DNA of 46,421 nt, filler included, from Jimgerdemannia flammicorona (Eukaryota), in NCBI GenBank assembly GCA_003990765.1. It is 2 parts of 2 records of this genome, joined end to end, with 100 filler letters (N's around TTAATTAATTAA, not from the genome) between each part and the next. Parts side by side here need not be neighbours in the genome. Positions count along the whole stretch, not along the records: positions 1 to 23,161 come from RBNJ01001144.1; 1 more part is not named here. One strand, given 5' to 3'. Under the pieces are notes generated by a model. The model was given only the letters and a program-made list of their open reading frames with translations. It was not told the DNA's origin and did no database searches. Below, in pieces: positions 1,165-39,760 of the stretch. Both the position numbers and the translations under genes were made by a program. How positions within the stretch are numbered: the stretch's first letter is position 1; every line of letters begins with the position of its first letter.

Positions 1165-1470
1165 TAGTGCTCTGAACGAGTCAATTCAAATCAAATCCAG
1201 ATTCGATTTGTTATATGACAGTTTGATCTGAATCTCAAATCTGAAGCCATCCAAATCAACTTGGATTAATCTGAATCACCCCATCTGAATCACTCCATCC
1301 AAATTACCCATCCAAACTACCCCAATCTGAATCACTCAATTCAAATTACTCAATCCAAATCACTCAATCCAAATCACTCAATCCAAATCCTACAATTTGA
1401 ATCCTCTAATTTGAATTCTCCAATCTGAATTCTCATCCAAATTCTTCAATCAAATCCTCCAATCCAAATC
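1165..1470 (+). repeat. Left TIR and subterminal short repeats (ATCC(G)AATCAC-like)
   Basis: Tandem ~13-14 nt units such as atccaaatcactca and atctgaatcacccc. The same array occurs at about 9004-9340. Confidence 0.8.
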
Positions 1471-1569
1471 CTCCACATAACTCATATGCCAGATACATCC
1501 ACAACACAATATATATATATGCATATACAATGTATATATACATATATATACACAAACATATAAATATAT

Positions 1570-4158
1570 ATGTTGACAGATCAATCTTCAACAGTTCACA
1601 GTACTGATGATGCTTCAAGTCAAACATCCCTGATAGTTCCACACCTTCTATGTAATCCTTGCTCCAAAATCTAGCAATATTGTACTAAGATAGGAGATGA
1701 TGTTATTTGTAATTATTGTAGGTAAAAAATTAAGATGCACCTATTGACACTTTTTGTTTTGACATACATATGATATTGTTTCATCCACCCCCATAAACTG
1801 CACCAGCCAGATGTTCAAAATGCTTAGTGGTATGACTTCAAACATGAATCAACACATAAAAGACAAGCATTCTGACAAAATCAAAAAGAATATGGAGATA
1901 AATAAAATTGACATTCAAGCTGTAGTGGGTATATTTATCTGATTGTCTGACCATTTCTATACCAACAATGCCATTTAATCAAAAATATTTAGCCATACTC
2001 TTTGGCAGAATTTTGAAATTGGCTCATTCGCTGGATTGTGTGCACAGACCAGTCATTCACAACCATCAAGAGTGATCAATTGCATAGTATCTTTGGCCTC
2101 CTCAAGTATGATTTATATTTGCCAAGTACTGATACTATTCACAAAGATGTCCTGGAGGCCTATAGAAAGGAGCATAACAATCTCCACCAGATACATCAGA
2201 TAAAATAAGGGCAGTACCATGACCTTTGCAAGCTGAATTATACAAAAGAGCTCACCAATTTAACCTCACATACAATAAGCAGAATTCAGCAGGCAAAATT
2301 TCATTTATGATTGACACATAGACATCTTCCAATGCAATTTCATTTCTGGACATTACTGGTTATTGGATTGATCTCAATTGGTAGCTTAAATCTCTTACCC
2401 TTGACTTCATCAAACTTGCTAGCTCTCATTCTGGAGACAACATCATAGATGCTTTTATTAATTATATCCAGGAGCTTGAGATCACAACCAAGGTAAAAAA
2501 GGGGAACTTGCCATCAGATCAGCATTTTGAGAGAGGTCCTAAAACAAACCAGATTTTATTGGTTATTTATTTTCACATAAATTTGCTGATTGAATATTTT
2601 AAGTATAGATTTTGGCTATTATGATGGACAATACTACAAACAACTCAATATTTTTCAAATTTTTAGTGGCCAGCCTCAAACAGGAAAATATGGCCTTTGG
2701 TATAGAAAGCTACCATATATGATGCCAGGCCCACATACTGAACCTTGCTGTTCAGGACTATCTTACACATGTAAACAAAACATCTGAGAGAGGAGGGGCT
2801 CTGAGTATAATTTCCAAGCTGCACAAACTGGTTGTATCAGTCTGATCATCCTCACAATAATGAGACAAATTTACTACACAGTGTAGAGTAATCAGTTTAG
2901 CTCCAAAAGAGCTTATATTGAATGTCTGTATGTATTGGAACTCAATATTTACAATGATCCAGCACACACTGGAGTTTGCTGTGGTATGTATCCTTTTTTT
3001 CTTCAGTTGGCTGAAGCAACTTGTTTCGGATGATTGAAGATTTATTTTTAAAAAAAAAAACAAAAAACAAAAAAAGCCAATAGATTCAACAGTGGCTGCC
3101 GACAAGGAAATATGGGCTGAGGCTCTAGGTGAAAGTGAGTGGGATGTACTTAGGAATATTGTTAGAGTTTTGGAAGTAAGTGGTGATTGCTCTGGCTCTA
3201 CACTCATTTTGTCAGCCTCTACACTCATTTTGTCTGCCTCTACACAATGCAATACCTCACCACATATAACTACCAGTGTTTCAATAATTGTATGAAGGAT
3301 ATAGTCAAACAAACGACTCTGACAATAAGCTCAGCAATACCAGTATACAACCTTCTAATTGACTGGCTAGAGGACAAGCTCAAGGATAGACTAGAGAGTT
3401 GCAGTGATTTATAGTTGAGCTCAGATCACAGAGATGCCATGGAGGTTGCTCTTAGCATGCTTAGAAAGTACTACTCCCAAACAGATACCACCATATACTC
3501 AATCAGTACAGATATGTCAATGTTGGCATGTGGCTATTGAAGCTTCCAAAACAGAGAAACCCTCACAAAAACTCACTCTCTCCTTTTCTTTGAACAGTGC
3601 TGGACCCATGCTTAAAGCTACAATACTATAAAGATCAGGGCTGGGAGCAGTACTTCATTGAGAGAACTAAGCAGGCCATAATCGAAATATACTGGAAAAA
3701 CTATATGCTGCCACAAGGTTCCAGTCGAAGTCTGGACAAATATGCCAAGAGATCCCTCCTGTCCCACATTTACTTCAGCAGAAAGAGAAAGAGGGAGCTG
3801 TCAGTGGAAGAGCTGCCATCAATAGATGAACTTACTATTTATCTCACCAGTGATCACATAATCCTGCTGGAGGGTGCAGAGGTGCTCAACTGGTAGAAAG
3901 TGGATTGTCAGGTCAATTTAACCCACCAATCTAACCACTGCTCTACCCACCAGAGCATGTAGCTGCATCAAACAGACTTCTCCAGCCTATGTGGTAGGAC
4001 TCAGGACTACCTGGTGATTCCTGCCTCCAGTGCTCCCATCGAGCAGATGTTCTCAGGTAGGGTGGACCTTGGTGCCCCAAAGAGGTGTGTGCTGAACACT
4101 GAGAAAATCTGGGTATATATATATGTGTCTGAAGTCTTGGTGGGGCTCAGGCTGCTAA
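1570..4158 (+). pseudogene. Decayed intron-containing hAT (Ac-like) transposase
   Basis: Reconstructed with the help of copy 2. BED finger (SKIWQH...CNYC split by an intron from TSNMNQHIKDKH), LIRWIVCTDQ.FTTI, ISF.IDTW, DNATNN, CQAH.LNLAVQ, WNS, LDP.LKLQYY and C-terminal RDYLV.PASSAPIE..FS...KR..L...CLKSW. Multiple premature stops and several GT-AG introns. Confidence 0.93.
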
Positions 4159-4293
4159 AATTTGGTAGGTCCTGGGGGTTTGTGGATAAGTTGGTTGGCC
4201 TTGTGGAATATTTAATACCTTTCAAAAATAATAAAAAGGTAAAAAACTCTAAGGACTCAGCCTGGAGTTTGCAGGGTTGGCAGCAGTAGCAAA

Positions 4294-4955
4294 GGGAGTG
4301 CACAATGTTTGTAGCCCTCCACCAGCAGTAAGGGGCAGCCCCAAGCTGTCAGTACCTAGGTCAGTGGGCAGGTTGGTGGGTGGGCACAGTATTGGTAGAG
4401 AGAGCACACAAAATTTGCAGCCCTCCACTAGTAGTAAGGGGCAGCCTCAAGCCATAAGTGTCCCAGTCAGGGGGGTTGGCGGAGGGGGGGTTGGCAGAGG
4501 GAGTGTGCAAAACTTGCAGCTCTCCACCAGTAGCGAGGGGCAGCCCCAAGCTGTCAGCACTCAGGTCAGTGGACAGGGTCAGTCAGTAGGGTTGGTGGGC
4601 ACAGAGTTGACAGAGGGAGCACACAAAATTTGTGGCCCTCTACCAGCAACAAGGGGCAGCTCCAAGCCGCAAGTGTTTGGGACAGACAGGGCAGGCAGAG
4701 AGAGCATGCAAAATTTGTGGCCCTTTGCCAGCAGTAAGGAGCAGCCCTAAGCTATCAGCACCCAGATCAGTGGGTGGGGTCAGTTGGTGGGGTTGGTGGG
4801 CATAGAGTTGGCAAGGAAGTGCACAAAATTTGTTGCCCTCTACCAGTAGCAAGGGGCAGCCCCAAGCCACAAGTGTCCAGGATGGGTGGGGCAGATGGAG
4901 AGAGTATACAAAATTTGCAGCCCTCTGCCAGTGGCATAGGGGCAGCCCCAAGCCA
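4294..4955. repeat. GC-rich internal repeat array of 7 copies of a ~55-nt core with G-rich spacers
   Basis: Core GGGAGYRYRCAAAATTTGYRGCCCTCYRCCAGYRGYRAGGGGCAGCCCCAAGC at about 4294, 4400, 4499, 4615, 4700, 4815 and 4900. Confidence 0.9.
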
Positions 4956-5282
4956 CCAAGGAGTCTGGGGCAGAGAGTGCTTCTGGCAGTCAGAGGGTGC
5001 TTCCAATAGTTGAAGTCTACCACAGATTTGGACCCCATCACCAGTTCAGGTCTCATGGGCACCCTGGCCCTACACTGCAGTACCATACTGGTGGCACTGC
5101 AGAGCAGAACCAAGGAGCCAGTAGGGCTCTGCATAATGGCTAAGCTAGTGCTACAGAAGAGGCACCCAGCCCAACCCCCCTACATAAGACTGCCCAACTC
5201 ACACAAAATGACTACCTAACCCTCACAAAAGACTGCCTATCCCTCATGAAATATTGTCTAACCCTCACAAAAACTGCTCTAC

Positions 5283-7354
5283 CTACCAGTTCCAGGCCTT
5301 GAGGAGCCTATCATCTGTTGTGAGTGTGATGACTATTGTGTCCAAGCTCTCCTTGAAGGTGACGGTACTGTAGTGGTTGTGTAGTTGGAAGAGGATGGCC
5401 ATATTGGCTGCAAACAGGACACCAAAACTGTAGATAAGGTCATACCAGACTCTCTGCTATCATCCCAGATTGGGCCCTTCCTTTCTGAGATGTAAAAAAT
5501 TACTGGGGTGACATTGCTGTCTGTGTGTGTGAGCAGAGAAATATTACATCCAATGTATCCTGATGTGATATGAGTGTATAGTTGGGTGAACTCTTGGCCC
5601 AGGACCTTATACTGCCAGACTGTACTGGTGGATGTCTACTCTTGGTCTAGCCCTGGGAGCCCCAGCTTAAATACTTGCCAAAACAGACAGCAACTGGTCA
5701 GTTCTTTTTGCATATGGGGGAGCAGAAACCCCCTGGGCTACAGAAATCCCCCAGGCCACAGAAATCTCCTGGGCTGCAGCACCCCAAAAAAGTGGAGCTC
5801 CTTACCTCATATGGCATGCTAAATTGTACCAATAATGTACATACAGCTGCACTGAGATCACCACTAAGCTGGCCTGCCATACACCCTATCAATCTGCTCA
5901 AAGAACCCCAGACCATAGCCACCATCACTGTACAGGTCATGTCATACTCACATGCAGTTTGCTCTTCAACAGCACTTCTAAAGTTCTGGTAGGGGTACAG
6001 AATCTTATGCATTCCTGGAATTGTATCAAAAAGAGTATGTTGGCAAAGAGTGTGATTTATCTAGGGAGGAGAAAAAAAAAAAAGGGAGATAAGTGTGGGG
6101 GATTTCAGAACTCCAGAACCCACCCTTTGCCAGTATTGAAATATACCCAATTCTCATCCAAACCCCCCCTCCTTGCTTTTTTCGCCCCCTCTTTCCTACC
6201 ATCTGGTATTTGATACAATCCTCACAAATCTCATTGATGTGGCAGTGAAGCTTATTGCCATAGAGGTTCCTTACCACCATCGCAACCACCTCTCTGCATT
6301 CGTTAATAAAGATATGGTTCTCTTCATCATTGGTTACTCCTGCTGACCAATGGACCCCTTAGTCAAGATCAATTGGCTCTGATTCGAATGTAGACCCCCA
6401 AGCCTTGATGACAATACTGGTACTGCTCATACTGAACATCTTGCCCTCAAATTTCTCTATTTGATCAGACACCAGATATGGTTGAACTCAGGTAACTTTG
6501 AACTCTCCTTTCCAATGGAACTGAGCCCTGATCTGAGGGACCAAGATAAGTATGTGGATGGGTTGCATGCAGATGGGTTGCATGTGGATGGGTTGCATGT
6601 GAGCAAGTTGTATGTGGGTGGGTTGTGTGTAGGTGTGGGTGTTTTTTAGGAGGAGACTATGTAAAAAATAAAATTAAATAAAACATAGAGATGGGTATTT
6701 TAGAAAAAGAGCATGAGTGAGTGAGTGAGTGAGCTGTATACCAATGAGTTGCACACCAACAAGTTGCACAAGTTGCACAAGATTACACATGAAGGCCTGC
6801 TTCTGTTCCTTTTGAGACCTCTGCCATGCGATGCATTGACTCAATAGCTCAGCCACCAAAGGCATGCCCTGCAATATCCTCCAACCTTTCTTCATCTTGA
6901 CCAGATGTTGTGAATAAAGTCAGCAGATCTCACCATAGAGCTGTGGACCCTAAGAAGAGCACAAGGTGAATCAGGTCATGCTGGGGAAATTTAAACAAGT
7001 AAAAAGTAGTGGCAGAAAAGAGCAACCTATATCTACTACTGACTGCTCCAAAAAGGCTGCTGCATATATAGCTGTGAGGTTTGTGAATTCTGAGGTCTAA
7101 AGGGCTGCTGTGAGTTGTTGCTGAAATTCACCCTCATCTCTACCATCACTGTTGCCATTGTCATCACCACTGTCATCACTCCTTTGGCTCTCAATGAGCG
7201 GCTTGTGTACTGCCTATATGAGAAAGAATCTAACATTGTCAGCAGAGAGTGTATTTCCACCTTGAATACTCCTTCTTTTGATAATCATTATAGGGTAAAA
7301 AATGAGTAGACTGGACCAATGTATGAATTAAGGGCTGCTGTTTTGTTTGCTCAT
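5283..7354 (-). pseudogene. Decayed spliced cargo gene, putative TET/JBP-like 2OG-Fe(II) dioxygenase (copy 1)
   Basis: Minus-strand frames are conserved with copy 2. Upstream exon: NHIFINE.REVVAMVVRNLYG.....INEICEDCIKY..VGKRGRKKQGGGVWM.IGY. Last exon: N ISLLT H-T-D (5527-5519) ... SGGVWYD..YGFGVLF..N.AILFQ..(D/N)-H (5375-5373)-Y-S-T-V-T. Exon limits and start codon are approximate. Confidence 0.62.
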
Positions 7355-7496
7355 AATGTAGCAGAAAAGAACAAAGAAAAAGAACAAAGAAAAGAGAGAG
7401 AACAAAAGAAAGGGTGATGTTACTAAAGTATAGCAGGAAAAAAAAAAACAAGAGTGAAATGAACAAAAGAAAGGGTGATGTCACCAAAGATTTCAA

Positions 7497-7677
7497 TTTG
7501 GATAGATTAATCTGGATGGATTAATCCAGATGGATCAATCTGGATCAATCTGGATGGATCATCCAGATGGATCAATCTGGATCAGATCACAAGACCAACC
7601 CAAGTTGATATGAATCTATCACATAATGAACCTGAATCAAATCTCATCTGGATCAACTCCATTCATTTGAAGTACTA
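7497..7677 (+). repeat. Right subterminal repeats (TGGATCAATCCAGA-like) and right TIR
   Basis: Tandem GGATCAATCT/CCAGATGGAT units. The same array occurs at about 15830-16056. Confidence 0.8.
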
Positions 7678-7874
7678 TTCATTGTAATGTGGTGGAAGGG
7701 GTCTGAATACCTGGTCTTACTGATCTTGTTTCTGTTTTTAGCACTTGTCACACTCTTTGACAAATTGGTACAGATCTTCTTCTATCTTAGACCAATATGG
7801 TTCTTCTTACTTTGTTATATATATTAGTTCCTCCTAAGTATCCTTGTTCATATACTTCTTTCATTACTTGATAC

Positions 7875-8298
7875 TAGTGCTCTCAAATGAGTTGAATCAA
7901 TTCGAATTGAATTGAATTGAGGGTTAAATGAGTCAAATTGAATTGGGGATTTTTCAATTCAAATCAATTCGAATCAAATCAAAAGTTGAATCAAATTGAG
8001 GGTCTGATTTGAACCCTAATTTTCAAAATGCAATAACTCAGCATAAACACATCCAAAACTAACATACTTTAGCATGTTAGAATCACATTAATATGGTGAA
8101 TCTAACAAGCTAAAATATGTTAAATTTGGATGAGTTTTCGTCGAGTTATTATATTTTGAAAATTAAGGTTTGAATTGAACTTCGAATTGAATTGGACCTT
8201 TGATTTGATTTGAATTGAATTGAATTGGACCCTTGATTCGATCGAATTGAATCGAGTTTGGGTCAAATTCGATTCGATTTGATTTGTTGGGAGCACTA
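7875..8298. mobile_element. Non-autonomous hAT MITE, copy 1 (424 bp)
   Basis: TIRs TAGTGCTC/GAGCACTA. Perfect 8-bp TSD CTTGATAC at 7867-7874 and 8299-8306. Decayed TCGAA pentamer repeats and an internal palindrome. Confidence 0.96.
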
Positions 8299-9430
8299 CT
8301 TGATACTTCTTATATTTAGATATTATGAGCTTTCCTCCTCTTCTGAGTGTAGTATTGTCTAGTTCAAATTTTTTCCAAGTCTGGTTGATGATGGTAATAG
8401 TTTAGGGTTCAAGATGGTTGAGCATCTTCTGCTGCTCAAGGTAGCTAATTAATCTATAGTATAGCTCCTTATTCATGTTAAATAGTCTTGATGGGGTGTT
8501 TTAGAGTATTCTTAAGAGTACATCAGCATTGACATTGGTTCTTCCTGAGCAGTGCTTGATAGTATAGTCATACTCTTGCAGCCTGTAGATCTATCTGATA
8601 TATATTTCTTTAGAGTTCAGAGTATAAAATAGCTAGGCAAAAGCAGAATGGTCTGTTTGAATTATGAAGTATTTTCTAGCTAGATAGTAGTGGAACTTGT
8701 CTACTGTCCAGACTACTGCTAAGCATTCTAGCTTATATGACTTATAGTTCTGTTCTGCTCCACAGGTACCTTGGCTTGCATAGGAGATGACATATTTATG
8801 TCCATCTTTCTTCTGAGCTAAAAATGCTCTATAGTACTTATATTTATCTATAGGATGAACTCTAGGTTCCAATCTGGTCTTCTGAGGATAGATACTTGGG
8901 TCAATCTGATCTTGAGTTTATTGAAGGTTTCTTGATATTTCTTGATCCATTTGAGTTTGGTCTCCTTTTTTAGTAGCTTGTAGATAGGTACTATAATGTT
9001 GGATAGTGCTCTGAGCAAGTCAATTCAAATCAAATCCAGACTCAATTCATCACATGACAGTTTGATCTGAATTTCAAATCTGAAGCCATCTGAATCAACT
9101 TGGATTAATCTGAATCACCCTATCTGAATCACCCCATCCAAATCACCCATCTGAATCACCCCAATCCGAATCACTTAATCTGAATCACTCAATCTGAATC
9201 ACTCAATCTAAATCACTCAATCCAAATCACTCAATCTGAATCCTCCAATTTAAATCCTCCAATTTGAATCTTCCAATTCAAATCCTTTAATTCAAATCCT
9301 CATCCAAATCCTTCAACTGAATTCTCCAATCCAAATCCTCTACATGACTCATATGCTGGATATATCTATACACATATATATATAATATATATCCACATAT
9401 ACACATGTATACACAAACATGCAAACATAC

Positions 9431-12018
9431 ATGTCAACAGATCAGTCTTCAACAGTTCACAGTACTGATGATGCTTCAAGTCAAATATCCCTGATAGTTC
9501 CACACCTTCCATGCAATCCTTGCTCCAAAATCTGGCAACATTGTGCTAAGATAGGAGATAATGTTGTTTGTAATTATTGTAGGTAAAAAATTAAGACACA
9601 CCTATTGACACTTTTTGTTTTGACATACACATGATATTGTTTCATCCACCCCCATAAACTGTACCAGCCAGAAGTTCAAAATGCTTGGTGGTATGATTTC
9701 AAACATAAATTAATACATAAAAGACAAGCACTCTGACAAAATCAAAAAGAATATGGAGACAAATAAAATTGACATCCAAGCTGTGGTAGGTATGTTTATC
9801 CGATGGCCCAACCATTTCTGTACCAATAATGCCATTTAATCAAAAATATTTAGCCATACTCTTTAGCAGAATTTCGAAATCGGCTCATTTGCTGGATTGT
9901 GTGCACAGATCAGCCATTCACAACCATCAAGAGTGATCAATTATATAGCATCTTTGGCCTTCTCAAGCATGATTTATATTTGCCAAGTATTAATACTATG
10001 TATTTGCAAAGATGTCCTGGAGGCCTATAGGAAGAAGCACAACAATCTCTGCCAGATACTTCAGGTAAAATAAGGGCAGCATCATGACCTTTGCAAGCTA
10101 AATTATATAAAAGAGCTCACCAATTTAACCTCACATTCAATAAGTAGAATTCAGCAGACAAAATTTTATATACAATTGACACATGGATATCCCCCAATGT
10201 AATTTTATTTCTGGGCATTACCAGCCATTAGATTGATCTCAATTAGCAGCTTAAATCTCTCACCCTTGATTTCATCAAACTTGCTGACCCTTATTCTGGA
10301 GACAACATTGCAGGTACTTTAATTAATTATATCTGGGAGCTTGGGATCACAACCAAGGTAAAAAAGGGGGGCTTGTCATCAGGTTGGCATTTTGAGGGAG
10401 ATCCTAAAACAAATTAGATTTTATTGGTTATTTATTTTCACATAAATTTACTGACCAAATATTTCAAGTACAGATTTTGGCCATTATGATAGATAATGCC
10501 ACAAACAACTCAACATTTTTCAAAGTTTTAGTAGTCAGCCTCAAACAGGAAAACATGGCCTTTGGTGCAGAAAGCTATCATGTGTGATACCAGGCCCATG
10601 TACTGAACCTTGCTGTTCAGAACAATCTTATACATGTAGACAAAATATCTGAGAGAGGAGGGGCCCTGAGTATAATTTCCAAACTGCACAAACTGGTTGT
10701 GTCAGTCTGATTGTCTCCACAATGATGAGACAAATTCACTGTACAGTATAGGGCAATCAGTTTAGCCTCAAAAGAGCTTATATTGGACATCTGTACACAT
10801 TGGAACTCAATATTTGCAATGATCCAGTATGTGCTGGAGTTTGCTATAGTATGTGTCCTTTTTTTCTTCAGTTGGCTGAAGCAACTTATTTTGGATAATC
10901 AAAGATTTATTTAAAAAAAACAAAAAAAGCCAATAGATTCAACAGTGGCTACCAATAAGAAAATATGGGCCAAGACTCTAGATGAAAGTGAGTGGGATAT
11001 ACTTAGGAATGTTGTCAGAGTTTTGGAAGTAAGTGGTGATTGCTCTGGCTCTACACTCATTTTGTCAGCCTCCACACTTATTTTGTCTACCTCTGCATAA
11101 TGCAACACCTCACCACATATAACTGCCAGTGTTTTGACAATTATATGAAGGATATAGTTAAACAAATGACCCTGACAATAAGCTTGATAATACCAGTATA
11201 CAACCTTCTGATTGACTGACTAGAGGACAAGCTCGAGAACAGGCTGAAGAGTTGTGGTGATTTATGGTTGAGCTCAGATCAGAGCAACACTATGGAGGTT
11301 GCTCTTAGTAAGCTCAGAAAGTACTACTCCCAAACAGATACTGCTGTATACTCAATCAGTACAGATATGTCAATGTCGGCATATAGCTATTGCCCCTTCC
11401 AAAACAGAGAAACCCCTGCAAAAACTCACTCTCTTCTTTTCTTTGAATAGTGCTGGACCCACGCTTAAAGCTACAATATCATAAAGATCAGGACTGGGAG
11501 CAGTACTTCATTAAGAGAACTAAGTAGACTGTAATTGAAGTATACTGGAAAAACTACATACTGCTGCAAGGTTCTGGCCAAAGTCTAGATAAATATGCCG
11601 AGGGATCCCTCCTGTCTCACATTTACTTCAGCAGAAAGAGGAAGAGGGAGCCATCAGTAGAAGAGCTGCCATTAATAGATGAACTTACCATTTATCTTGC
11701 CAGTGACCATATGATCCTGCTGGAGGGTGTAGAGGTACTCAACTGGTAGAAGGTGAGTTATCAGGTGGGCATTGGGCCAATTTAACCCACCAATCTAACC
11801 ACTACTCTACCCACTGGAGTATGCAGCTGCATCAAACAGACTTCTCCAGCCTGTGTGGTATGGCTCGAGACTACCTGGTGTTTCCTGCCTCCAGTGCTCC
11901 CATTGAGTGGGTGTTCTCAGGTGGGGTGGACCTCATTGCCCCAAAGAGGTGTATGCTGAACACTGAGATAATCTGAGTATATATGTATCTGAAGTCTTGG
12001 TGGGGCTCAGGCCACTAA
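9431..12018 (+). pseudogene. Decayed intron-containing hAT transposase, copy 2
   Basis: ATG TCA ACA GAT start, SKIWQHCAK...CNYC, IDTW, DNATNN, CDxRPM/C..H.LNLAV region, LDPRLKLQY and GMARDYLVFPASSAPIEWVFSGG...KRCML...LKSW, with premature stops. Confidence 0.93.
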
Positions 12019-12177
12019 AATTCGGTGAATTCTGGGGGTTCACAGATAAGTTGATTGGTCTTGTGGAATATTTAATATTCTTTCAAAAATAATAAAAAGG
12101 TAAAAAACCCTGAGGACTTGGCCTGGAGTTTGCGACCCAAGTGGGCAGCAGTCAGCAGGGTTGGCAGTGGCAGCAGA

Positions 12178-12990
12178 GGGAGCATGCAATGTTTGTGGCC
12201 CTCTGCCAGCAGTAAGGGGCAGCCCCAAGCTGTCAGTGCCAGGATCAGTGGGCAGATTGATGGGTGGGTGTAGGGTTGGTAGAGGGAGTGTGCAAAATTT
12301 GCAGCCCTCCACCAGTAGCAAGGGGCAGTCCCAAGCTGCAAGTGTCCTGGTTGGGGGGGTTGGCGGAGGGGGGGTTGGTGGAAGAGGGGTTGGCAGAGAG
12401 AGCATGCAAAACTTACAGCCCTCCACCAGCAGTGAGAGGTAGCCCCAAGCTGTCAGTGCCTGGGTCAGTGGGTGGGGTTGGTCAGCAGAATTGGTAGGCG
12501 CAGGGTCAGCAGAGGGAGCATGCAAAATTTGTGGCCCTCCACCAGCAGCAAGGGACAGCCTCAAGCTGTAAGTGTCTGGGATAGGTGGGGCAGGCAGAGG
12601 GAGCATGCAAAATTTGCAGCCCTCTGCCAGCAGTGAGGGGCAGCCCCAAGTTGTCAGCACCTGGGTCAGTGGGCAGGGTCAATTGGCGGAGTTAGTGGAT
12701 ATGAAGTTGGTGAGGGAGCATACAAAATTTGTGACTCTCTGCCAGCAACAAGAGGCAGCCCCAAGCTGCAAGTGTCCAGGATGAGTGGGGCAGGTGGAAG
12801 GAGTATGCAAAATTAGCAGCCCTCTGCCAGCAGTATAGGGGCAGCCCCAAGCCACCAAGGAGTCTAGGGCAGAGGGTGCTTCTAGCAGTTGGAGGGTGCT
12901 TCTGGCAGTCGGAGAGTGCTTCTGGTGGTCAGAGAGTGCTTCTGGCAGTTGGAGGGCATTTCTAGCAGTCGAAGGGTATTTCTGGCAATT
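12178..12990. repeat. GC-rich 7-core array followed by six copies of a 20-nt tandem repeat (12871-12990)
   Basis: Same core as 4294-4955. The 20-mer (GGAGGGTGCTTCTGGCAGTC-like) occurs six times here and twice in copy 1 (4972-5011). Confidence 0.9.
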
Positions 12991-13260
12991 GAAGTCCACC
13001 ATAGATTTGGGCCCTGTTGCTGGTTTGGATCCCATGGGCACCCTGGCCCTGCACCACAGTGCCACACCAGTGGCACTATAGAGCAGGGTCAAGGGGCCAA
13101 TAGGGCTCTGCATAACAGCTAAGCTAGTACTACAGAAGAGGTGCCCAGTCTAACCCCCTATATAAGACTGCCTAACCCATACAAAATGACTGCTTAACCC
13201 TCATAAAAGACTGCCTATCTCTTGTGAAAGATTGCCTAACCCTCACAAAAACTGCTCCAC

Positions 13261-15686
13261 CTACCAGTCCCAGGCCTTGATGAGACTATCATCTGTTGTA
13301 AGTGCAACAACTGTTGTGTCTGAGCTCTCCTCGAAGGTAATGATGCTGTAGTGGTCATGTGGTTGGAAGAGAATGGCCATGTTGGCCACAAATAGGACCC
13401 CAAAACCATAGGTGAGGTCATACCAGACTCCTCCACTATCCTCTGAGGTTGGGCCCTTCCTTTCCAGGATATAAAACATTACTAAGGTAACATTGTTGTC
13501 TATGTGTGTGAGCAGAGAAATGTTGTGCCTGATGTATCCTGATGTGACATAAGCATATGGTTGGGTGAACCCTTAGACTAGGACCTCATACTGCCAGGCT
13601 GTGCTAGTGGATGCCTGCCCTTGGTCCAGCCCCAGGAGCCCTAGCTTGGAAATCTGCCAAAACAGATAGCAATCAGTCAGTCCTTTTGCATACAGGGGGA
13701 CAGAAAACCCCCAGGCCACAGAAACCCCCCAGGCTGCAGCACCCCAAAAAAGTAGAGCTCCTCATCTCATACAGTATGCTAAATTGCACCAAGAATGTAT
13801 GTACAGCTGTGCCAAGATCACTACTAAGCTGGCCTGCCATATGCTCTACCAATCTGCTCAAAGAACCCCAGATTATAGCTGCTATTGCCATATAGGTCAT
13901 GTCATACTTATGTGCAGTTTGCTCTTCAATGGCACTTCTAAAGTTCTAGTAGGGGTACAGAATCTTGTGCATTCCTGGAATTGTATCAAAAAGAGTATGT
14001 CGGTGAAGAGTGTGATTTATCTGGAGAGGAGAAAAAAAAAAAAGAGAGATGAGTGCAGGGGATTTTGGAACTCCGGAACCCACTCTTCACCAGTGTTGAA
14101 GTATATCCAATTCCCATCCAAACTCTCCCTTCTTGCTTTTTTCGCCTCCTCTTTCCTACCACTCAGTATTTGACATAATCCTCACAAATCTCATTGATAT
14201 AGCAGTAAGTGCTCCCAAACAAGTCAAATCAATTTGAATCGAATTGAATTGAGGGTGAAATAAGTCAAATCAAATTGGGGATTTTTCAATTCAAATCAAT
14301 TTGAATCGAATCAAAAGTTGAATCAAATTGAGGGTCTGATTCAAATCCTAATTTTCAAAATGTAATAACTCAGTATAAACTCATCCAAATCTAATGTACT
14401 TTAGCTTGTTAGAATTGCATTAATATGGTGAATCTAACAAGCTAAAATATGTTAAATTTGGATGAATCTTCGTTGAGTTATTACATTTTGAAAATTAAGG
14501 TTTGAATCAAACTTCGAATCAAATTGAGTTTGGGCCAAATTCAATTTGATTCAATTCATTGGGAGCACTAGTAGCAGTGAAGCTCATCACTGTAGAGGTT
14601 CCTTACCACCATCACAACCACCTCTCTATGTTCATTAATAAAGATATGGTTCTTTTCATCATTGGTTACTCCTACTGACCAATGGACCCCTTGGTTGAGA
14701 ATGATTGGCTCTGATTTAAATGTAGACCCCCAAGCCTTGATGATGATGCTGATACTACTCATGCTGAACTTCTTGCCCTTTAATTTCTCTATTTGATCAA
14801 ATGCCAGATATGGTTGAACTCAGGTAACTTTGAACTCTTCTTTCCAATGGAACTGAGCCCTGATCTGAGAGACCGAGATAAGTGTGTAGATGGGGTATAT
14901 GCAGACAGATTGCATGCAGATGGGTTACATGTGGGTGAGTTGTGTGCAGGCAGATTGCATGCAGGTGTGGGTGTTTTTTAGAGAGAGACTACATAAAAAA
15001 TGAAATTAAATAAAACACAGAGATGGGTATTTCAGAAAAAGAGTGTGAGTGAGTGAGTGAGTGAGCTGTATGCCAACAAGTTGCATGTCAACAAGTTGCA
15101 TGAGTTGCACAAAATTGCTTATGAAGACTTGCTTCTGTTCCTTTTGAGACCTCTGCCATGCAATATATTGACTCAATAGCTCAGCTACCAAAGGCATGCC
15201 CCACAACATTCTTCCACCATTCTTGATCTTGACCAGATGTTGCAAATAAAGTCAGCAGATCTTACCATAGAGCTGTGGATCCTAAGAAGAGTATGAGGTG
15301 AATTGGATCATGCTGGGGGAATTTAAATAAGTAAAAAGTAGTGGTAGAAAAGAGCAACCTACATCTACTATTGGCTGCTTCAAAAAGGCTGCCACATACT
15401 TAGCTGTGAGGTCTGTGAATTCCAAGATCTGAAGGGCTGCCATGAGTTGTTGCCAGAATTCACCCTCATCCCCACCATTGCCATTGCTATTGCTATTACC
15501 ACTGCTATTGCCCCTTTGGCTCTCGATGAGCAGCTTGTGTGCTGCCCATATGAGAAATAATCTAATATTGTCAGCAGAGAGTGTGTTTCCACCTTGAACA
15601 CTCCCTCTTTTGATGATCATTGCAGGGTGAAAAATGAGTAGACTAGACCAACATATGAATTAAGGGCTGCTGATTTGTTTGCTCAT
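13261..15686 (-). pseudogene. Putative TET/JBP-like 2OG-Fe(II) dioxygenase cargo gene, copy 2, disrupted by a MITE
   Basis: Last exon reads GYIRHNISLLT-HID(13506-13498)-NNVTLVMFYILERKGPTSEDSGGVWYDLTYGFGVLFVANMAILFQPHD-H(13353-13351)-YSIITFEESSDTTVVALTTDDSLIKAWDW. ORFs 13673..13900, 14568..14762 and 15282..15620 are upstream exon pieces. Confidence 0.62.
14207..14570. mobile_element. hAT MITE, copy 2 (364 bp)
   Basis: Homologous to 7875-8298. TSD ATAGCAGT (14199-14206) and GTAGCAGT (14571-14578). The empty site GTGGCAGT is present once at 6239-6246 in hAT copy 1. Confidence 0.94.
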
Positions 15687-16193
15687 GATGTGGCAGGAAA
15701 GAACAAAGAAAAAGAACAAAGAAAAGAGAGGGAACAAAGAAAAGGGTGATGTCACCAAAGTGTGGCAGAAAAAAAAAAACAAGAGCAAAATGAACAAAAG
15801 AAAGGGTGATGGCACCAAAGATTTTTATCTGAATGGATCAATCTGAATGGATCAATTCAGATGGATCAATCCAGTTGGATCAATCTGGATCAATCTGGAT
15901 GGATCATCCAGATAGATCAATCCAGATGGATCAATCTGGATCAATCTGGATTAATCCAGATCAGATCACAAGATCAATCTGAGTTAATTCAAATCCATCA
16001 TATGACAAATCTGAATTGAATCTCATCTAGATCAACTCCATTCATTTGGAGCACTAAGTGATTCTTTCAATATTCTGAGAAGTTAATCTGTTAAAAAAGA
16101 AAGAGATATTATAAAGATAAATACTAGAGAGAGCTATCTTGATAGTAATCTTTTCTTAAGTTAATAATTAAGATATCTGATAAGATACTAAGC

Positions 16194-18413
16194 TTTTTTT
16201 TTTTTTTTTTTTTATAGTCACTTGGACTTCTATTTATTACCACTCAGTCTATAAACAATAATATATAAGTACCCACAATCCTTCAGCCAATGCTCCTTGG
16301 ATCTCTCTCTTCACTCTTCCTCTTAATCTGCTAAAGAACAACTCAGTCACCTATCATCCAAACTCTTCCTCCACTCTTTCTGTAAATACAATTCATAAAA
16401 TTTCAACAGTCCCCCCCATCTGGTCCTCACCCTCTCCACAAACTATTCCCAATGTACTATCCTAGCCCCAACCTCAACCTGCTGGCCCTCCTCAAAGACA
16501 TAAAGTCAATAACTGACCATTCCTACTCAAATTGCCAGAACCCATCCCAAAGTCAGTCATTCATTCCTCATCCTGTCTACTAGCCTATATCAGAGGTCCC
16601 CCCATCTCCCTCCTTCTCCCCCCACCAGGGGCTGCAATCTCAGCCTACTTGAAATACTATATCAAAACTCTCCCAAAACCTCACACTCCCTTAGCCAATG
16701 TTTAGGCATTTGTATCACTCCCCCCTCCTGACCAACATCTATATATTTCTTATATGCAAATACACCATCTACTGCCAAATGCCCTGACCAATAGTTCAGC
16801 ATTACATTTCACCTTAGAAATCTCCACTACACCACCCAGTACTTAAAGAGAAGCCACCATATTGTCTGCTTGCTCTAAGGTCAAACACTATTCCAATTTT
16901 ACTCCTCCCTGATCTCCACCCTTTACTATGCTTCAGGCCACACATCTCCCCTGAGCCCCCACATACATTCTATTCCATTGCTAAGCTGAAAATTCTCCAC
17001 CAATATACCTCCCAGTAGTAGCCAGTTCCATCTCCACATCTGCGGTCCCCAACCCTCCTCTCCCTCATCACTCCTCCACTGGAGTCCAATTCTTCTTGCA
17101 CTATCTACCACCCCCTACCAAAAGTCTTTGTAATATATCCTCTTGCTCCTATCTATAGTCACCATTGCAAGTAGGTCACCCATCACTCCATGAGGAGAAT
17201 ACCAGACTTTCCACAACCTCTGCATAAATGGTACCCACTCCTGGCCCCTCAACTTGCTCACTCTCTTCAGCCACTATGCTTGCAGACAATAGAGGTACTT
17301 GGCAAAGTCCACCAAGCCCAGTCCACCTCTGTCAACAGGCAGAGTGAGAATGTCCCAGCCTATCTGACTTTGCCACTCAGTCCAAATCTAAGATCTTGCT
17401 ATCTTCAGAAGTTGTCTGACCAATGGCAGAAAGTCTAGATGATACCTCACATACCATAACTTTGGCAGCCAATATACATTCAACACCATCACCCTCTCTG
17501 CCAAGAATATATGCTGACCACTCCATCTTAATAGAATATTCCCTCATACAAGTAGCTACCTTTTTCACCATATATGGGGTAGGAGGGAACCATATACTGA
17601 GAAGTATATCTCTAAGTACTGGACAGGTTCTCCTACTGGGACCACTGTTCCAATCACATTACTGCCAACTATTCCATCACTTAGCACCAGAGTCTTATAC
17701 TTGTACCAGTTGAGTTAAGCACCTGAGCCCCTCTCATACCATTCCATCATCCTTCTTAATTCCTCCACATCTCTTAATAAACCCAGTCCAACCACTATGC
17801 CATCTGCAAAAGCCCCAACCTTCCAAAATATCCAAACCCCCAACTTGAAACTGAATCCTATCCAACAGAGGCTTCAAAGAAAGAGTATAAAGAATGGGTG
17901 ATAAAGGATCCCCTTGTGGTACCCCACAATCTAGTGGAAATGTCACACCTCTGTACCCATTCACCACTAGTGCTGCTTGACTATTCTTCAATAAACTGAT
18001 TAATGTCCTTCTGAACTCTGGGGAAATTCTTACATATTTCAATACTTCCTCCAGCCAGACCCTCCTCACTCTATTATATGCCTTCTCCTGATCTAGAAAC
18101 CAACCCCAGCTGCCCATGCTCCTTCAATCACCATATGGATCCAGACAGTTCCATTGCAGATTAACTAACTACCAATAAATCCCCTCTGCTCCTCTCCTAA
18201 TATCTGCTGAGTGATCCTCTATAGCCTAGTCATCAAGATCTTTGTCACCAGCTTATGGTCTATATCAAGAAGTATGATTGGTCACCAGTTCTTCCAATCT
18301 TCTCTTCTCCTCTTATCCTTATAAAGTAAGGAAACTAGCTCTAGTTGCTGACCTCCAATCCAAGTTCCAGATCAAAGTACCTCATTATACATCACTATCA
18401 ATTCTTTCAGAAC
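16194..18413 (-). mobile_element. 3' portion of an L1/Tx1-like LINE (RT, C-terminus, poly(A) tail)
   Basis: T20 at 16194-16213, with AATAAA about 20 nt upstream on the minus strand. ORF 17734..18117 gives FLDQEKAYNRV...GVPQGDPLSPILY. Homology to the other LINEs stops at about 18413. Confidence 0.92.
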
Positions 18414-19061
18414 CAATATTTGGGTGACATAAGACTCAGACAACACTTTTTACTATGTTTTTGGTGTCTGATGACTATTGACATAGATGGCAATGATCGA
18501 ACTGGTGAGCATACTGGCCAGGGGGGTGATGGCGCCTTTGGCTGGCAGTAGGTGGAGAGGAGAGAAGATGGTTTGGAGATGCTGGGGGCCTTGATGACTA
18601 GCCAAGGTCCTGGTGATGGAGAGAGGGGTGGTCTGAGGCAGAGAGGAGGGGAGAGATTGACCTTTGCTGACAAGGTCAGAATGGAGAAGATGGCCTCAGG
18701 TCTAGATGGTTAGCTGGACAAGGGGAAGGCATCAACAGCTGCTGCTGGGGGATATAGAGGTGTACCCAGGGGAGTTTTCAATAGTAGGAGAGGAGTGGGA
18801 GTAGGGGCTGGAGATGTGACTGTTAATGGGGCCATGACTGGAGATCTGGCAAAAAATCCAGATATGATGGCAGTTGATAATTCAGGATAGAGAGTAGGCA
18901 TGAGGCCCAGAGACCTAGCAGATGGAGTAATAGGCATGGTGTTGGCCCCATTACTCAAGAAGTCAAGGTCAGAATTTGCAGTCACAATGTGTTTCTGGGG
19001 CTTGGCAGTGATAGCAAGGATGATTTTGGGGCTAGTAGTGTAGGAGGCAAAGGGAGCAGCA

Positions 19062-20366
19062 TTGGTGAAGTTTTTGAAGGGGAAGAAAGGGGTCAAGATG
19101 GGGTTCGAGGAGGAAGATGCCTTGCTGGCAGCCTTGGAGAAGGGGGTGACAGTTGGTAGGATTGTAGTCCCTATAGCCAGGTACATGTGCTGGGACCCCC
19201 GAGTGGTGCAGTTGACAGTATTGGATCTCCCTATGATGTTGAAGAAGAGGACCAGGGAGTTGGTTGTAGAGGCGATCAGGGAGTATGGAGAGATTGTGGA
19301 TATTGGGTTCAAGGTCTGGGAGGGTACAGAGCTTCAGACTAGTGACATCGATATCAGGGTGAGACTGGCTGGGAGGGAGAGTACAGGAATGTCAAGGGAC
19401 TGGCCAGTGATGCTGAGGTGGGGACCAGTAGAGTATAAGGTCACAAGGGTGAAGGGGACCCAGGAGGAGGAGGAAGATCTGTTAGAGGCTCTGGAGAATC
19501 TGGAAGGGGTAGTTGTGAGGAGGAGATTGGCAAGGAAGGATGGGAAGAGGGTCCAGATGGAGAAGGGGGCCTGGGAGAAGATGCAGGGGAGGAAAATCCA
19601 GAAGGAGTTGCTGGCGAAGTTGGGTGGGGGTAGGGCTAGTGGAAGCTCAGGGGAGGGGGTTGTGGGATTGCAGGAGAGCACCTGGGCTGAGGGGAGTGTA
19701 AGGGTCTGGGGTGGGGCTCAGATTGGAGTGGAGGAGGAGAGAGAAGGCAATATGGAGGCAGATGTGGATATGAGCGAAGGTGTGCACCCCCAGTATAGTG
19801 TCCCAGGTGAAGCTGAGGGAGAGGAGGAGCTGCTGGATATGCCAGATGAGGAGTGGGATGAGTCAGTGAGGAGGAGTGCACTGGTGGACCCTGAGGTCGA
19901 TGGGGGACAAATCACTCAGGGTGTGGCAGAGGTGGTGGATGAGGAGAAGTGGATATGGAAGACCCTGAAAGGGGTAGCGGCTGAAGAGCTGGGGGATGAG
20001 GATTTCAGAGTGATGGAAGAGAGGCACTGGGAGGAGATCCTACAGGGAGAGGAGGTGCTGAGGAAGATGAGGAACAAGATCCTGGCTGTTCTTCTAGAGT
20101 CAGTTGAATATCAAGTTGATGATCAGAGAGAGGAGAAACTTAGGAGGATTGCAAGTGATAGGGCACTATACTTGTGGAACTTGAGGAAGGGACTGGAGAA
20201 GTGGCACACAGTCTGCTTAGACTACCAGTTGGAGATAGAGATAGTGGATGGGGTGGAATGTCAGGAAATCTTAGAGGCACTGGATGCTCAGGCTAATACA
20301 GAGAGTGACTTGGAAGCTGAATGGCACTTGGATCTGGCTGGGGATGAGATGAGCATGGAATACTAG
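19062..20366 (+). CDS. LINE ORF1 protein (longest open part; the true start is probably further upstream behind stops)
   Basis: 434-aa ORF ending 31 nt before ORF2. A homologous decayed frame lies at about 33250-31265 on the minus strand. Confidence 0.75.
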   Translation: MVKFLKGKKGVKMGFEEEDALLAALEKGVTVGRIVVPIARYMCWDPRVVQLTVLDLPMMLKKRTRELVVEAIREYGEIVDIGFKVWEGTELQTSDIDIRVRLAGRESTGMSRDWPVMLRWGPVEYKVTRVKGTQEEEEDLLEALENLEGVVVRRRLARKDGKRVQMEKGAWEKMQGRKIQKELLAKLGGGRASGSSGEGVVGLQESTWAEGSVRVWGGAQIGVEEEREGNMEADVDMSEGVHPQYSVPGEAEGEEELLDMPDEEWDESVRRSALVDPEVDGGQITQGVAEVVDEEKWIWKTLKGVAAEELGDEDFRVMEERHWEEILQGEEVLRKMRNKILAVLLESVEYQVDDQREEKLRRIASDRALYLWNLRKGLEKWHTVCLDYQLEIEIVDGVECQEILEALDAQANTESDLEAEWHLDLAGDEMSMEY

Positions 20367-20397
20367 GCTGGGGTCTCTATTGCAACATTCTTTCAAT

Positions 20398-33300: not shown

Positions 33301-34150
33301 TTTTCTCTAAAAATGATGTTGTAAGTACTTTTTAAAGATTGTGTAATCTGAATAGTACTGGAGAAAGATAGATGATGCCAAGCTCTCAACATAGATACAC
33401 AATTGGCCCTTCTACTAGTCAGCCTCAGAGGACCTGCCAAAGATAAGTTCAATATAGCTACTATTGCTAATACTGGTACAGCCAGACTTATCAATATGAA
33501 GACCTTCTTTAGAACTATATACTATACTGAAGAGATCAAGCAAGCTCTCAAGGATCAACTCAATACTATCTGCTAGGGACTCTGTGAAGATTCCAATTTA
33601 TTCTATATCTGAATCTGCCACTAGATTATCTTGGCTGGCTATGATGACTATCTTAAGGAACAAATAGCAGATTCAACCTTCCTCAAAGGAGTTTACTATC
33701 TATTCTAGCTGCACTGACCCTTGATCAGAAAGTAGTCTTTATACAGAGATATTGGACTGCTAGACACTCTACCAAACACTCAATGGAGAAAATAACTAGC
33801 ATCAAGATAGAGTCATCAAAGCTAACTAGTATCATACCCACCACAGTTGTAAACAGACAACTATCCCCATCTACCCCCAAGGCAGTCAAAGCTGACCCAG
33901 TGGAGAAACTCACCAAGCAGTTTACAAAAATGACTGCATATCTTAGTGATGTTGTTAGAGAAGTCCAAAGTACTAATAAGAGATCAGTATAGAGATTTGC
34001 AGCTACTACAGAAGAATGTAATATCATATGCTTTAGATATAGAGAAGAAGGCCACTATGTAAAGAGTTGCATGACCAAAACAAGACATAAAGCCCAATCA
34101 AGTAATACTACTAGAACCAGAGAACAAACCAATACAGTAGTCATTGAGGA
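27398..34150 (+). pseudogene. Gypsy A gag, split by a LINE (27398-27502 plus 33397-34150) and continuing after Gypsy B
   Basis: Removing the LINE and one TSD copy restores the frame MEMCLPTF...DFEQF...ALNID|TQLALLLVSLRGPAKDKF. A decayed CCHC knuckle CFRYREEGHYVKSC lies at about 34028-34070. Confidence 0.85.
27503..33379 (-). mobile_element. Full-length L1/Tx1-like LINE (~5.9 kb) inserted in Gypsy A gag
   Basis: Poly(T) at 27502-27518. ~17-bp TSD AAGCCCTCAATATAGAT (27486-27502) and AAGCTCTCAACATAGAT (33380-33396). ORF2 starts at 31233 (MNSTTNFFSLNMNGL) and contains GGDFN, QGDPL, IFADD and a decayed C-terminal CCHC. Confidence 0.95.
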
Positions 34151-34554
34151 TGTAATATTTTAGCATAGTTTATTTCTTTTCTTTGTCTTTCTTCAATATT
34201 CTATGATCTTCCAGTACTTTCTGAATGCTTAGAAATCCTTTCTTGGTACCGAGCATCCTCTAGTACTTATTTAGCTAGTCACTGATTGTCCTGGAAACTT
34301 GTAGAACTTTATTTGTCATCATTTGTCATCCTTGCTGAGAACTTTCCTCTTGGTATTTTCCTTTGATTTCTCAGATCCTTCCAGATCCTTCTTTCAGATC
34401 TTATATAAATATCCCCTTTGTTCTCATGAATAAAGTCTCAGAATATTTTTTTCCAGAAATCCTTTGAGAATACTTGAATCCTTAAGTATCTCTTCAAGCT
34501 ACTTAGAACCACCAGAACTAGTTGCTTCCTTATTTAGAAACTAGAACCATTATA
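34151..34554 (+). repeat. Gypsy B 5' LTR
   Basis: TGTAAT...ATTATA. I count 20 substitutions and no indels versus the 3' LTR. Confidence 0.97.
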
Positions 34555-34556
34555 CT

Positions 34557-34568
34557 TGGTAGCAGCAG
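34557..34568 (+). promoter_or_regulatory. Primer-binding site, consistent with initiator tRNA-Met
   Basis: TGGTAGCAGCAG starts 2 nt after the LTR. TGGTAGC is the complement of typical tRNAiMet 3' ends. Confidence 0.75.
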
Positions 34569-34622
34569 TTAAGTTACACCTAGCCTTATCAAGACACCTC
34601 TCAAGATATCAGTCACAACACT

Positions 34623-39747: not shown

Positions 39748-39760
39748 AAGGAGGGAGAGA
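39748..39760 (+). promoter_or_regulatory. Polypurine tract of Gypsy B
   Basis: AAGGAGGGAGAGA immediately before the 3' LTR. Confidence 0.88.

Follow-up and report, generated by a model that had tools for sequence, protein, structure and literature searches.

A decayed hAT transposon family in Jimgerdemannia flammicorona with a candidate TET/JBP-like dioxygenase gene

Two hAT copies and their convergent accessory gene

The DNA analysed here (the window, 46,421 nucleotides of Jimgerdemannia flammicorona from assembly GCA_003990765.1) is transposon-rich eukaryotic DNA with extreme loss of CpG, the observed/expected ratio being 0.00-0.11 in all ten 5-kb bins, with an excess of TG and CA in most of them. 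It contains two decayed copies of one hAT transposon, each with an accessory gene besides the transposase. In the initial annotation this gene, drawn at 5283-7354 in the first copy, was read as a putative TET/JBP-like dioxygenase and a candidate anti-methylation system. The elements and their principal features, including two miniature inverted-repeat transposable elements (MITEs), are listed below.

1165-7677, plus strand: hAT element copy 1, decayed autonomous; termini TAGTGCTC (1165) and AAGTACTA (7677)
1600-4130, plus strand: transposase remnants of copy 1 in several exons with many stops; open reading frame (ORF) fragments homologous to the PF05699 region of copy 2
4250-5000, no strand: G-rich repeats of ~200-230 bp between the transposase and the Tet-like gene (repeat family D1)
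7875-8298, plus strand: non-autonomous MITE of the same hAT family, 424 bp; termini TAGTGCTC...GAGCACTA, perfect 8-bp duplication CTTGATAC
9004-16056, plus strand: hAT element copy 2; termini TAGTGCTC...GAGCACTA, direct repeats with copy 1
11815-11961, plus strand: hAT C-terminal dimerisation domain of copy 2 (PF05699), residues 37-85 of ORF 11707-11976
14207-14570, minus strand: second MITE of the same family, 364 bp, in copy 2 exon 2; duplication ATAGCAGT and GTAGCAGT

The element belongs to the hAT superfamily, as had been proposed. Copy 2 encodes the hAT dimerisation domain (PF05699, E 3.2e-6, 27.3 bits against a cut-off of 21.4), the terminal inverted repeats are short, and 8-bp duplications flank three insertions, namely copy 1 and the two MITEs, of which copy 1 taken by itself can be read as 7 or 8 bp. 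These three duplications indicate that the family makes target duplications of 8 bp. The sequence TAGTGCTC stands at or near all eight aligned termini, which have about 17 bp in common after allowing for CpG decay; judged from this alignment, the terminal repeat starts with TAGTGCTC and is about 17 bp long before decay. Both MITEs share the TAGTGCTC termini and carry subterminal AATTGAATC-type repeats.

The bounds given earlier for copy 1 hold, with the 8-bp duplication TTCATTGT on both sides (1157-1164 and 7678-7685). A paralogous repeat at ~43600-43760, on the other strand, contains the copy 1 target sequence once and free of the element, and represents the unfilled site. The DNA around copy 1 (1-1124 and 7702-9003) is itself a repeat of at least 2.3 kb, with an inverted second copy at 42765-44772; the two are 81-87% identical in pieces and served as the unfilled-site control. 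The placement of copy 2 within a hAT element is borne out by the matching termini at 9004 and 16056, whereas its flanks show no recognisable target duplication (ATGTTGGA versus AGTGATTC). The MITE at 14207-14570 is missing from copy 1, which thereby supplies its unfilled site, and its landing in copy 2 exon 2 means that the hAT family was still mobile after copy 2 had inserted.

Direct repeats D3, D5, D7 and D18 tie the transposase region of copy 1 to the PF05699-bearing region of copy 2, and the 11 plus-strand fragments of copy 1 gave no Pfam match at E<=0.1 because they are too decayed. A C-x2-C...H-x5-H pattern and a D-N-A-T-N-N motif are visible by eye only in the decayed transposase fragments, in which Pfam detected neither a DDE/RNase-H-like core nor a BED zinc finger. 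Between transposase and accessory gene, both copies (4250-5000 and 12130-12900) contain about three G-rich repeats with a GC content of 0.54-0.55 and a strong positive GC skew; for the copy 1 repeats, the GC content is 0.54 and the skew is likewise positive.

The accessory gene has four exons and ~358 codons in each copy and lies on the minus strand, downstream of the transposase and convergent with it. The convergent, spliced, minus-strand gene described at first is therefore upheld in both copies by the four-exon model and by relatives of the family. Two of these relatives, the protein P0005 and the metagenomic locus L001, support the exon assignments as follows.

5283-5665, minus strand: copy 1 exon 4; H-x-D and a Tyr at the distal-His position, stop codon at 5283-5285
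5806-6014, minus strand: copy 1 exon 3; TTCCAG acceptor and GTAAGG donor, tblastn with P0005 and L001
6124-6532, minus strand: copy 1 exon 2; start at 6532 or 6527, tblastn with P0005 and L001
6789-6865, minus strand: copy 1 exon 1; ATG at 6865, end at 6791 or 6789, recognised by eye
13261-13644, minus strand: copy 2 exon 4; one frame save for the stop at 13573-13575, Tyr at 13348-13350
13766-13974, minus strand: copy 2 exon 3; tblastn and alignment with copy 1
14084-14859, minus strand: copy 2 exon 2; interrupted by the MITE at 14207-14570
15121-15197, minus strand: copy 2 exon 1; mapped from copy 1 by alignment

The end of the gene at 5283 was placed exactly by the initial annotation. Its upstream limit of 7354 was not sustained, as tblastn provides no homology support for coding sequence, and hence for further exons, in the stretch 6866-7354 beyond the putative start codon at 6865. 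Introns 2 and 3 end GT...AG. For intron 1, the donor would be a GT that lies two bases further on or, in better agreement with the relatives, an AT that was GT before CpG decay. Exon 1 resembles, by eye, the N-terminus of P0005 in starting M-P and in carrying a W-Q-x8-F motif, with weak tblastn support (E 0.34 in copy 2).

The motifs reported for the gene (N-x5-H-x-D, GG-aromatic, YGFGV, AILF, VVALT and HIFINE..VVxMVV...GGGVWMxIGY) are all present. The H and D of N-x5-H-x-D in copy 1 are encoded at 5525-5527 and 5519-5521, YGFGV in copy 2 reads YSFGV in copy 1, VVALT is found in copy 2, and the long HIFINE..VVxMVV...GGGVWMxIGY motif lies entirely within one exon.

Both copies are pseudogenes, as was recognised from the start, with three to four stops or frameshifts each and a MITE within exon 2 of copy 2. 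Copy 1 has TGA at 6488-6490, TAA at 6359-6361, TAG at 5636-5638 and a 1-nt deletion near 5453; copy 2 has TGA at 14820-14822, the MITE, and stops at 14163-14165, 13946-13948 and 13573-13575. The TAA is private to copy 1, while the TGA occupies the same place of exon 2 in both copies. This common TGA sits where CGA would give Arg, a classic CpG nonsense change, and may have been inherited or have arisen in each copy separately.

The pattern of divergence between the copies is that of neutral decay after insertion. Pairwise alignment of the gene half gives a mean identity of 86%, and 357 of the 390 substitutions are transitions. CA/TG doublets, which mark ancestral CpG, occur at 67 sites between the copies; by context, 134 substitutions fall in CpG doublets, 109 are of the CpA-to-TpA type and 60 of the CpC type. 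The copies differ at 15.1% of exon positions (162/1073), 16.3% of intron positions (80/491) and 15.4% of positions elsewhere, outside the gene (148/958), and the differing codons comprise 38 synonymous and 94 non-synonymous changes. Since exons, introns and outside sequence have diverged alike, the frames shared by the two copies, which had been offered as conserved and are indeed common to both, are not evidence of selection. The two window copies are long dead and heavily C-to-T mutated, and they document the family rather than an active system.

Relatives of the gene and its link to hAT elements elsewhere

With stops throughout both copies and short ORFs in every frame, the apparent exons could be regarded as chance open frames in transposon DNA with no function at all. 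This reading has next to no chance of being correct, as it is refuted by relatives at E 7e-48 and 5e-20, by an uninterrupted protein of 374 aa (P0005) that is collinear with three of the exons, and by intron positions kept at locus L001.

The protein relatives were found by searching copy 2 exon 4 (103 residues in one frame) against 1.84 billion representative proteins at a threshold of E 1e-3. Six proteins passed, of which five are true relatives: P0001 (79% identical, E 7.3e-48), P0002 (46% identical, E 5.3e-20), P0004 (E 4.6e-7), P0005 (E 5.8e-5) and P0006 (E 1.9e-4). The sixth, P0003, is a 1768-residue repeat protein matched in ten stretches and was set aside as spurious. Because relatives at E 7e-48 to 2e-4 were recovered among 1.84 billion proteins, the gene is more than a chance reading frame.

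Reverse comparisons with tblastn place these proteins on the exon model. P0005 runs collinear with exons 2, 3 and 4 of copy 1 (exon 2, residues 92-182, E 1.5e-7; exon 3, residues 167-227, E 1e-3; exon 4, E 1.6e-5) and matches copy 2 exon 4 at E 8.6e-12. P0001 matches exon 4 at E 2.6e-42 in copy 1 and E 9.8e-65 in copy 2. The first residues of this protein (136 aa, from an 823-nt contig), M-P-E-L-P-G-L-D, look as though the last codons of exon 3 had been spliced to the first of exon 4. The contig may thus be a spliced transcript, in which case the nearest relative of the window gene may be expressed.

The family extends beyond these proteins. P0022 matches P0005 at E 8.8e-59, and a C-terminal profile search returned nine proteins, comprising the new fragments P0023-P0025, P0027 and P0028, the known P0002, P0004 and P0006, and P0026, which probably derives from the window gene itself. 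At 90% identity, P0004 falls in a cluster of 28 members spread over many short contigs. All relatives come from metagenome or run assemblies and are named nothing but 'hypothetical protein'. A word-index search with exon 2 for proteins of greater length yielded none, and no relatives were found among the pattern matches in prokaryotic genome contigs (0/15) or viral contigs (0/36). On these sequence comparisons, the accessory gene is real and genuinely conserved, forming a small family for which Pfam has no model.

Further copies of the gene were detected in a soil-metagenome DNA run, X1, which contains 0.11 of the sampled words, two more runs of the same study having almost none. In X1, 531 short contig pieces cover 5200-7400 at a likeness of at least 80%, with 64 at >=99%, 140 at 95-99%, 202 at 90-95% and 125 below 90%. 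Among the rows listed, the majority letters of X1 turn the copy 1 TAA (6361) and TAG (5638) into Gln codons and restore the base at 5453; position 6361 is G in 18 of the 18 X1 contigs listed there, and most other X1 copies are free of the TAG at 5636-5638 and of the 1-nt deletion. Read in this way, the Tet-like gene is a multi-copy family. No RNA run matched among the sequencing runs listed, and the X1 contigs on the gene are without joints.

A metagenome scan returned 23 pattern matches, among which are two loci, L001 and L002, that carry homologues of the gene. L001 is AT-rich, very different in base composition from the window, and its homologue is uninterrupted; L002 is a near-copy of L001 with a stop and a frameshift. 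The L001 intron between exons 2 and 3 splits the same Gly codon as in the window, the other introns lie within a few codons of theirs, and tblastn matches the L001 exons to the window at E 9.7e-10 (exon 2) and E 0.01 (exon 3). At the end of L001, 1.7 kb downstream of the gene, there are subterminal GATTCGATTTG-type repeats, and the terminus itself can be aligned with the window terminal repeat, ~26 of 31 positions matching the consensus by our own count from alignment A8. This suggests, and falls short of proving, that the gene is linked to hAT elements at L001 as well.

Two features of this locus count against the link. The 3.7-kb contig shows no transposase and, unlike in the window, its Tet-like gene is directed at the terminus and separated from it by another gene. 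The intervening gene, a second spliced gene at L001 2320-3370, gave no Pfam match in three fragments, and the window contains nothing like it; by analogy with those that Kojima reports for Harbinger and IS3EU elements, it could represent a third passenger.

Whether the gene serves the element at all can be weighed at this point. Host sequence is known to be captured by hAT elements, and a host gene caught by one hAT lineage through transduplication would do nothing for the element and would be silent on counter-silencing. Such an origin would agree with exons that have diverged as fast as introns between the window copies, with the loss of the distal His in both of them (see below) and with an L001 layout unlike that of the window. 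We nevertheless judge it very unlikely. An entire four-exon gene is carried, introns included, rather than a fragment; in L001, DNA of very different composition, the homologue is likewise near (1.7 kb) a related hAT-type terminus; and hundreds of X1 contig pieces cover the gene. Neutral divergence of two dead copies is, moreover, expected under either view. According to the available text of PMC12730594, Tet-like genes have become associated with transposons repeatedly and have been maintained there, in 11 lineages, which also speaks against a captured bystander.

Conserved residues and the case for a Tet-like enzyme

The C-terminal 125 residues of the family contain G-R-C-A-[ST]-S-P-x-H-x-D, a hydrophobic strand and GG-x-[FW]-Y-[ND]-[LM]-x-Y-G-[FV]-G-V, followed in order by N-[TM]-x-[IV]-x-F and H-G-[TS]. 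In alignment A7, where only the rows covering each column are counted, the first His is kept in 14/15 rows, the Asp in 13/15 and the distal His in 11/13, the two exceptions at the last position being the window copies. The H-x-D position reads H-[VTI]-D in 13 of the 15 rows and H-V-N in the other 2. The spacing from His to His is 50-52 residues. The facial triad H-x-D...H is therefore present in the family, its members being the best-kept polar residues.

The window copies fail at the distal His. This residue lies 52 positions after the first His, and both copies encode Tyr there (codons 5370-5372 and 13348-13350); the His at +51, which the initial annotation had counted, aligns with Leu, Val or Pro in the relatives. 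The His-to-Tyr replacement is a CpA-to-TpA change, not one of the CpG type, and since it is common to both copies, their source may already have lost the distal His and been catalytically dead. Parallel hits are possible, given the 109 CpA-to-TpA changes between the copies. With stops or frameshifts and a Tyr at the distal metal-binding His, neither window copy can work.

The residues expected to hold 2-oxoglutarate (2OG) present a mixed picture. An Arg stands 8 residues before the first His in 9/15 rows of A7 and is Cys and His in the window copies, both as expected from CpG decay of a CGC codon. By its position, this Arg may correspond to R224 of NgTET1 and R1261 of TET2, to which the available text of PMC7854593 assigns the binding of C1 of 2OG. 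That text also gives R289 of NgTET1 and R1896 of TET2 as the residues that bind C5. At the equivalent last-strand position the family has Asn, His or Thr in all 13 of the 13 covering A7 rows. The lack of the usual Arg had been flagged for the two window copies; as no member has it, it is a trait of the family and not a product of decay.

Searches against known domain families returned nothing. In Pfam at E<=10 there was no match for the minus-strand window fragments (8 from copy 1 and 6 from copy 2), for P0005, P0001, P0002, P0004, P0022 or P0023, or for the L001 exons. The proposed comparison with Tet_JBP and Tet-like profiles by HMMER, whose filters drop most matches above ~0.1, was thus negative for every member. 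PHROGs gave no match for the relatives and the L001 exons. Against the PDB, a single-sequence search returned two designed repeat proteins ('Tako8') alone, with no passing stretch, and a profile search returned no match.

AlphaFold models were of low confidence: P0005 (12 sequences) gave a predicted local distance difference test (pLDDT) score of 39.7, and the last L001 exon (18 sequences) gave 45.4. In both, the final 125 residues are assigned eight to ten strands, and in the L001 model a loop following a strand contains the H-x-D, and a strand begins at the distal His. The putative fold of the family is a double-stranded beta-helix (DSBH). Foldseek, run with the low-confidence model 1, ranked a cupin first (E 3.6e-3), followed by a bacterial prolyl 4-hydroxylase (P4H), PHD2 and NMAD-1 (~1e-2 for P4H and PHD2). 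No match fell below 1e-3, model 2 gave only E >=0.13 with cupins mixed with unrelated folds, and no Tet structure appeared among the best 50 Foldseek rows of either model. The structural check proposed at the outset thus yielded weak cupin and prolyl hydroxylase matches and no Tet chain in those rows.

Embedding-based neighbours were taken from the ESM Atlas. For full-length P0005 the first match (0.96) is a Basidiomycota cluster in which 15% of members have PF20515. Residues 245-374 of P0005 retrieve four named clusters at 0.89. Two of them have PF20515, in 72% and in 100% of members, and one has PF12851, in 31%; the last is named Tet-like and lacks a common Pfam family. Scores below 0.9 are to be read as leads only. 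PF20515 (2OG-FeII_Oxy_6, Tet-like) and PF12851 (Tet_JBP) therefore occur in the nearest named clusters, whereas hmmscan finds neither in the family at E<=10.

The nearest relative of the window gene family, as judged by eye, appears to be the PE-type of transposon-borne Tet-like proteins (Kojima 2025, Biology 14:1741, PMC12730594, 4 December 2025). The available text of that paper describes PE-type genes in transposons of Agaricus, Laccaria, Gymnopus and Pezizomycetes, in five lineages that do not include hAT. Compared with the PE-type rows of Table S1, the gene family shows five collinear blocks. They comprise a V-V-[IV]-R-[ND] strand; R-x-G/K...G...S-A-G; a hydrophobic helix with W or F; [RI]-[LMI]-D-G-x-G before the core; and GG-x-F-[FY]...Y/H-G...N-[ST]...H-G-[TS]-[ST], followed by G-[LM]-[SA]-x-[VT]-T-x-x-R-L, whose last strand and -R-L tail are also found in the window family. 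Without gaps, the best block reaches 13 identities over 38 residues and includes GG-x-F-Y...Y-G...N-T...H-G-[TS].

Both groups are also too distant from the Pfam Tet models for easy detection. The same text reports weak HHpred values for the PE-type (1.4 to CMD1 and 19 to NgTET) and matches of its AlphaFold DB models to CMD1, NgTET and CcTET below 1e-5. In the rows compared, the two groups differ in that the PE-type hallmark is H-x-E and that of the window family H-x-D, and in that the last strand starts with Arg or Gln in the PE-type and with Asn, His or Thr in the window family.

Among characterised enzymes, CMD1 has its triad at H345/D347/H397, a spacing of 52, in the available text of PMC7854593. 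CMD1, NgTET1, CcTET and human TET2 share with the family the H-x-D...H arrangement, a His spacing of 50-52 and an Arg shortly before H-x-D. The family differs from them in showing no HMMER-detectable similarity, in having no counterpart of R289/R1896 and in a fold that is as yet putative.

The evidence for Tet-likeness thus consists of leads, namely the PE-type match, the ESM Atlas neighbours and the weak cupin and prolyl hydroxylase matches in Foldseek. The empty profile and structure searches, the low-confidence models, the by-eye nature of the Table S1 comparison, the absent last-strand Arg and the Tyr of the window copies all weigh against a Tet-like enzyme. A rival reading is a conserved passenger of another kind, such as a beta-rich DNA-binding protein or a regulatory partner of the transposase, in which H-x-D...H is a structural or metal site unrelated to base oxidation; the missing Pfam, PHROGs and PDB matches, the two pLDDT values, the lack of a Tet structure in the best 50 Foldseek rows per model and the family-wide absence of the canonical 2OG-binding Arg speak for it. 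We consider such a passenger unlikely, while giving it more weight than the other alternatives. The triad is the best kept among the polar residues and has the spacing of CMD1, the five blocks are collinear with the PE-type by eye, the C-terminal part has only Tet-like or Tet_JBP clusters among its named ESM Atlas neighbours, and the weak matches of model 1 are cupins and 2OG hydroxylases, not other beta folds.

On balance, we favour as the probable reading that both dead copies in the window represent one autonomous hAT family and that each carries an accessory gene from a distant branch of the TET/JBP-like Fe(II) dioxygenases. What the initial annotation observed is confirmed. Its Tet interpretation is partly supported: the relatives have the H-x-D...H with Tet-like spacing, the profile and PDB searches are null, and the remaining indications are leads.

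A hAT partner for TET/JBP genes, which the initial annotation did not know of, has been published. The available text of PMC12730594 describes twenty TET+ hAT7 families in six Puccinia species, with a PU-type enzyme and 7-bp duplications, among its 11 transposon lineages with repeated and maintained Tet-like genes in rusts, mushrooms and truffles. As described there, hAT7 resembles the window family in being a hAT transposon with a TET/JBP-like protein besides the transposase, in residing in a genome whose repeats show methylation-linked C-to-T decay, and in its proposed role. The two differ in several respects. Duplications are 7 bp in hAT7 and 8 bp in the window family (three insertions, the two MITEs being unambiguous); the one hAT7 terminus compared, that of hAT7-1_PGr, begins CAACGG..., whereas the window family begins TAGTGCTC; and the two PU-type sequences compared do not have the H-G-[TS] and Y-G-F-G-V blocks of the window family. 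In the hAT7 families described, the Tet gene lies upstream in the same orientation as the transposase, while the window gene lies downstream and is convergent with it.

If an element were active, the most likely activity of its enzyme would be the oxidation of 5-methylcytosine on transposon DNA, which would counter methylation-based silencing or the C-to-T hypermutation to which methylation leads. An anti-methylation role is an inference here as it is in PMC12730594, where the available text puts forward escape from silencing or hypermutation as a hypothesis. If Tet-carrying transposons do represent a counter-defence against such silencing, as has been proposed, the window adds to them a canonical hAT family with 8-bp duplications. 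An enzyme family unrecognised by Pfam models also suggests that domain-based screens under-count such elements, and the uniform absence of the 2OG-anchoring Arg makes the co-substrate a testable question.

A more far-reaching possibility is that the family constitutes a fourth, hitherto undescribed type of transposon-borne Tet-like enzyme, with H-x-D and no C5-binding Arg, and that canonical hAT elements with 8-bp duplications have spread it among soil fungi beyond the three lineages in which Tet-bearing transposons are known. Like the algal CMD1, it may then use another co-substrate or make a product other than 5-hydroxymethylcytosine. We regard this proposal as distinctly unlikely in its full form. 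Early-diverging fungi are suggested by the AT-rich loci L001 and L002 and by an ESM Atlas cluster in which Mucoromycota is the commonest phylum. None of the papers retrieved on Tet JBP, Mucoromycota, transposable elements and 5-methylcytosine deals, judged by titles and abstract openings, with Tet-bearing transposons outside Dikarya.

Other elements in the window

Further probable mobile elements lie elsewhere in the window. At 34149-40058, direct repeats of 300 bp, 95% identical and 5.6 kb apart, flank ORFs that look by eye like gag, protease, reverse transcriptase and integrase; by this arrangement, the segment is probably a long terminal repeat retrotransposon. The ORFs at 41495-42061 include a dUTPase-like motif.

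The interval 16000-23000 has a very strong GC skew whose sign flips, together with inverted repeats of ~400 bp at 17431-17833 and 22472-22874. Its ORFs include a reverse-transcriptase-like one at 17734-18123 (minus strand) and a 440-residue acidic one at 19044-20366, and the interval looks like another nested retroelement.

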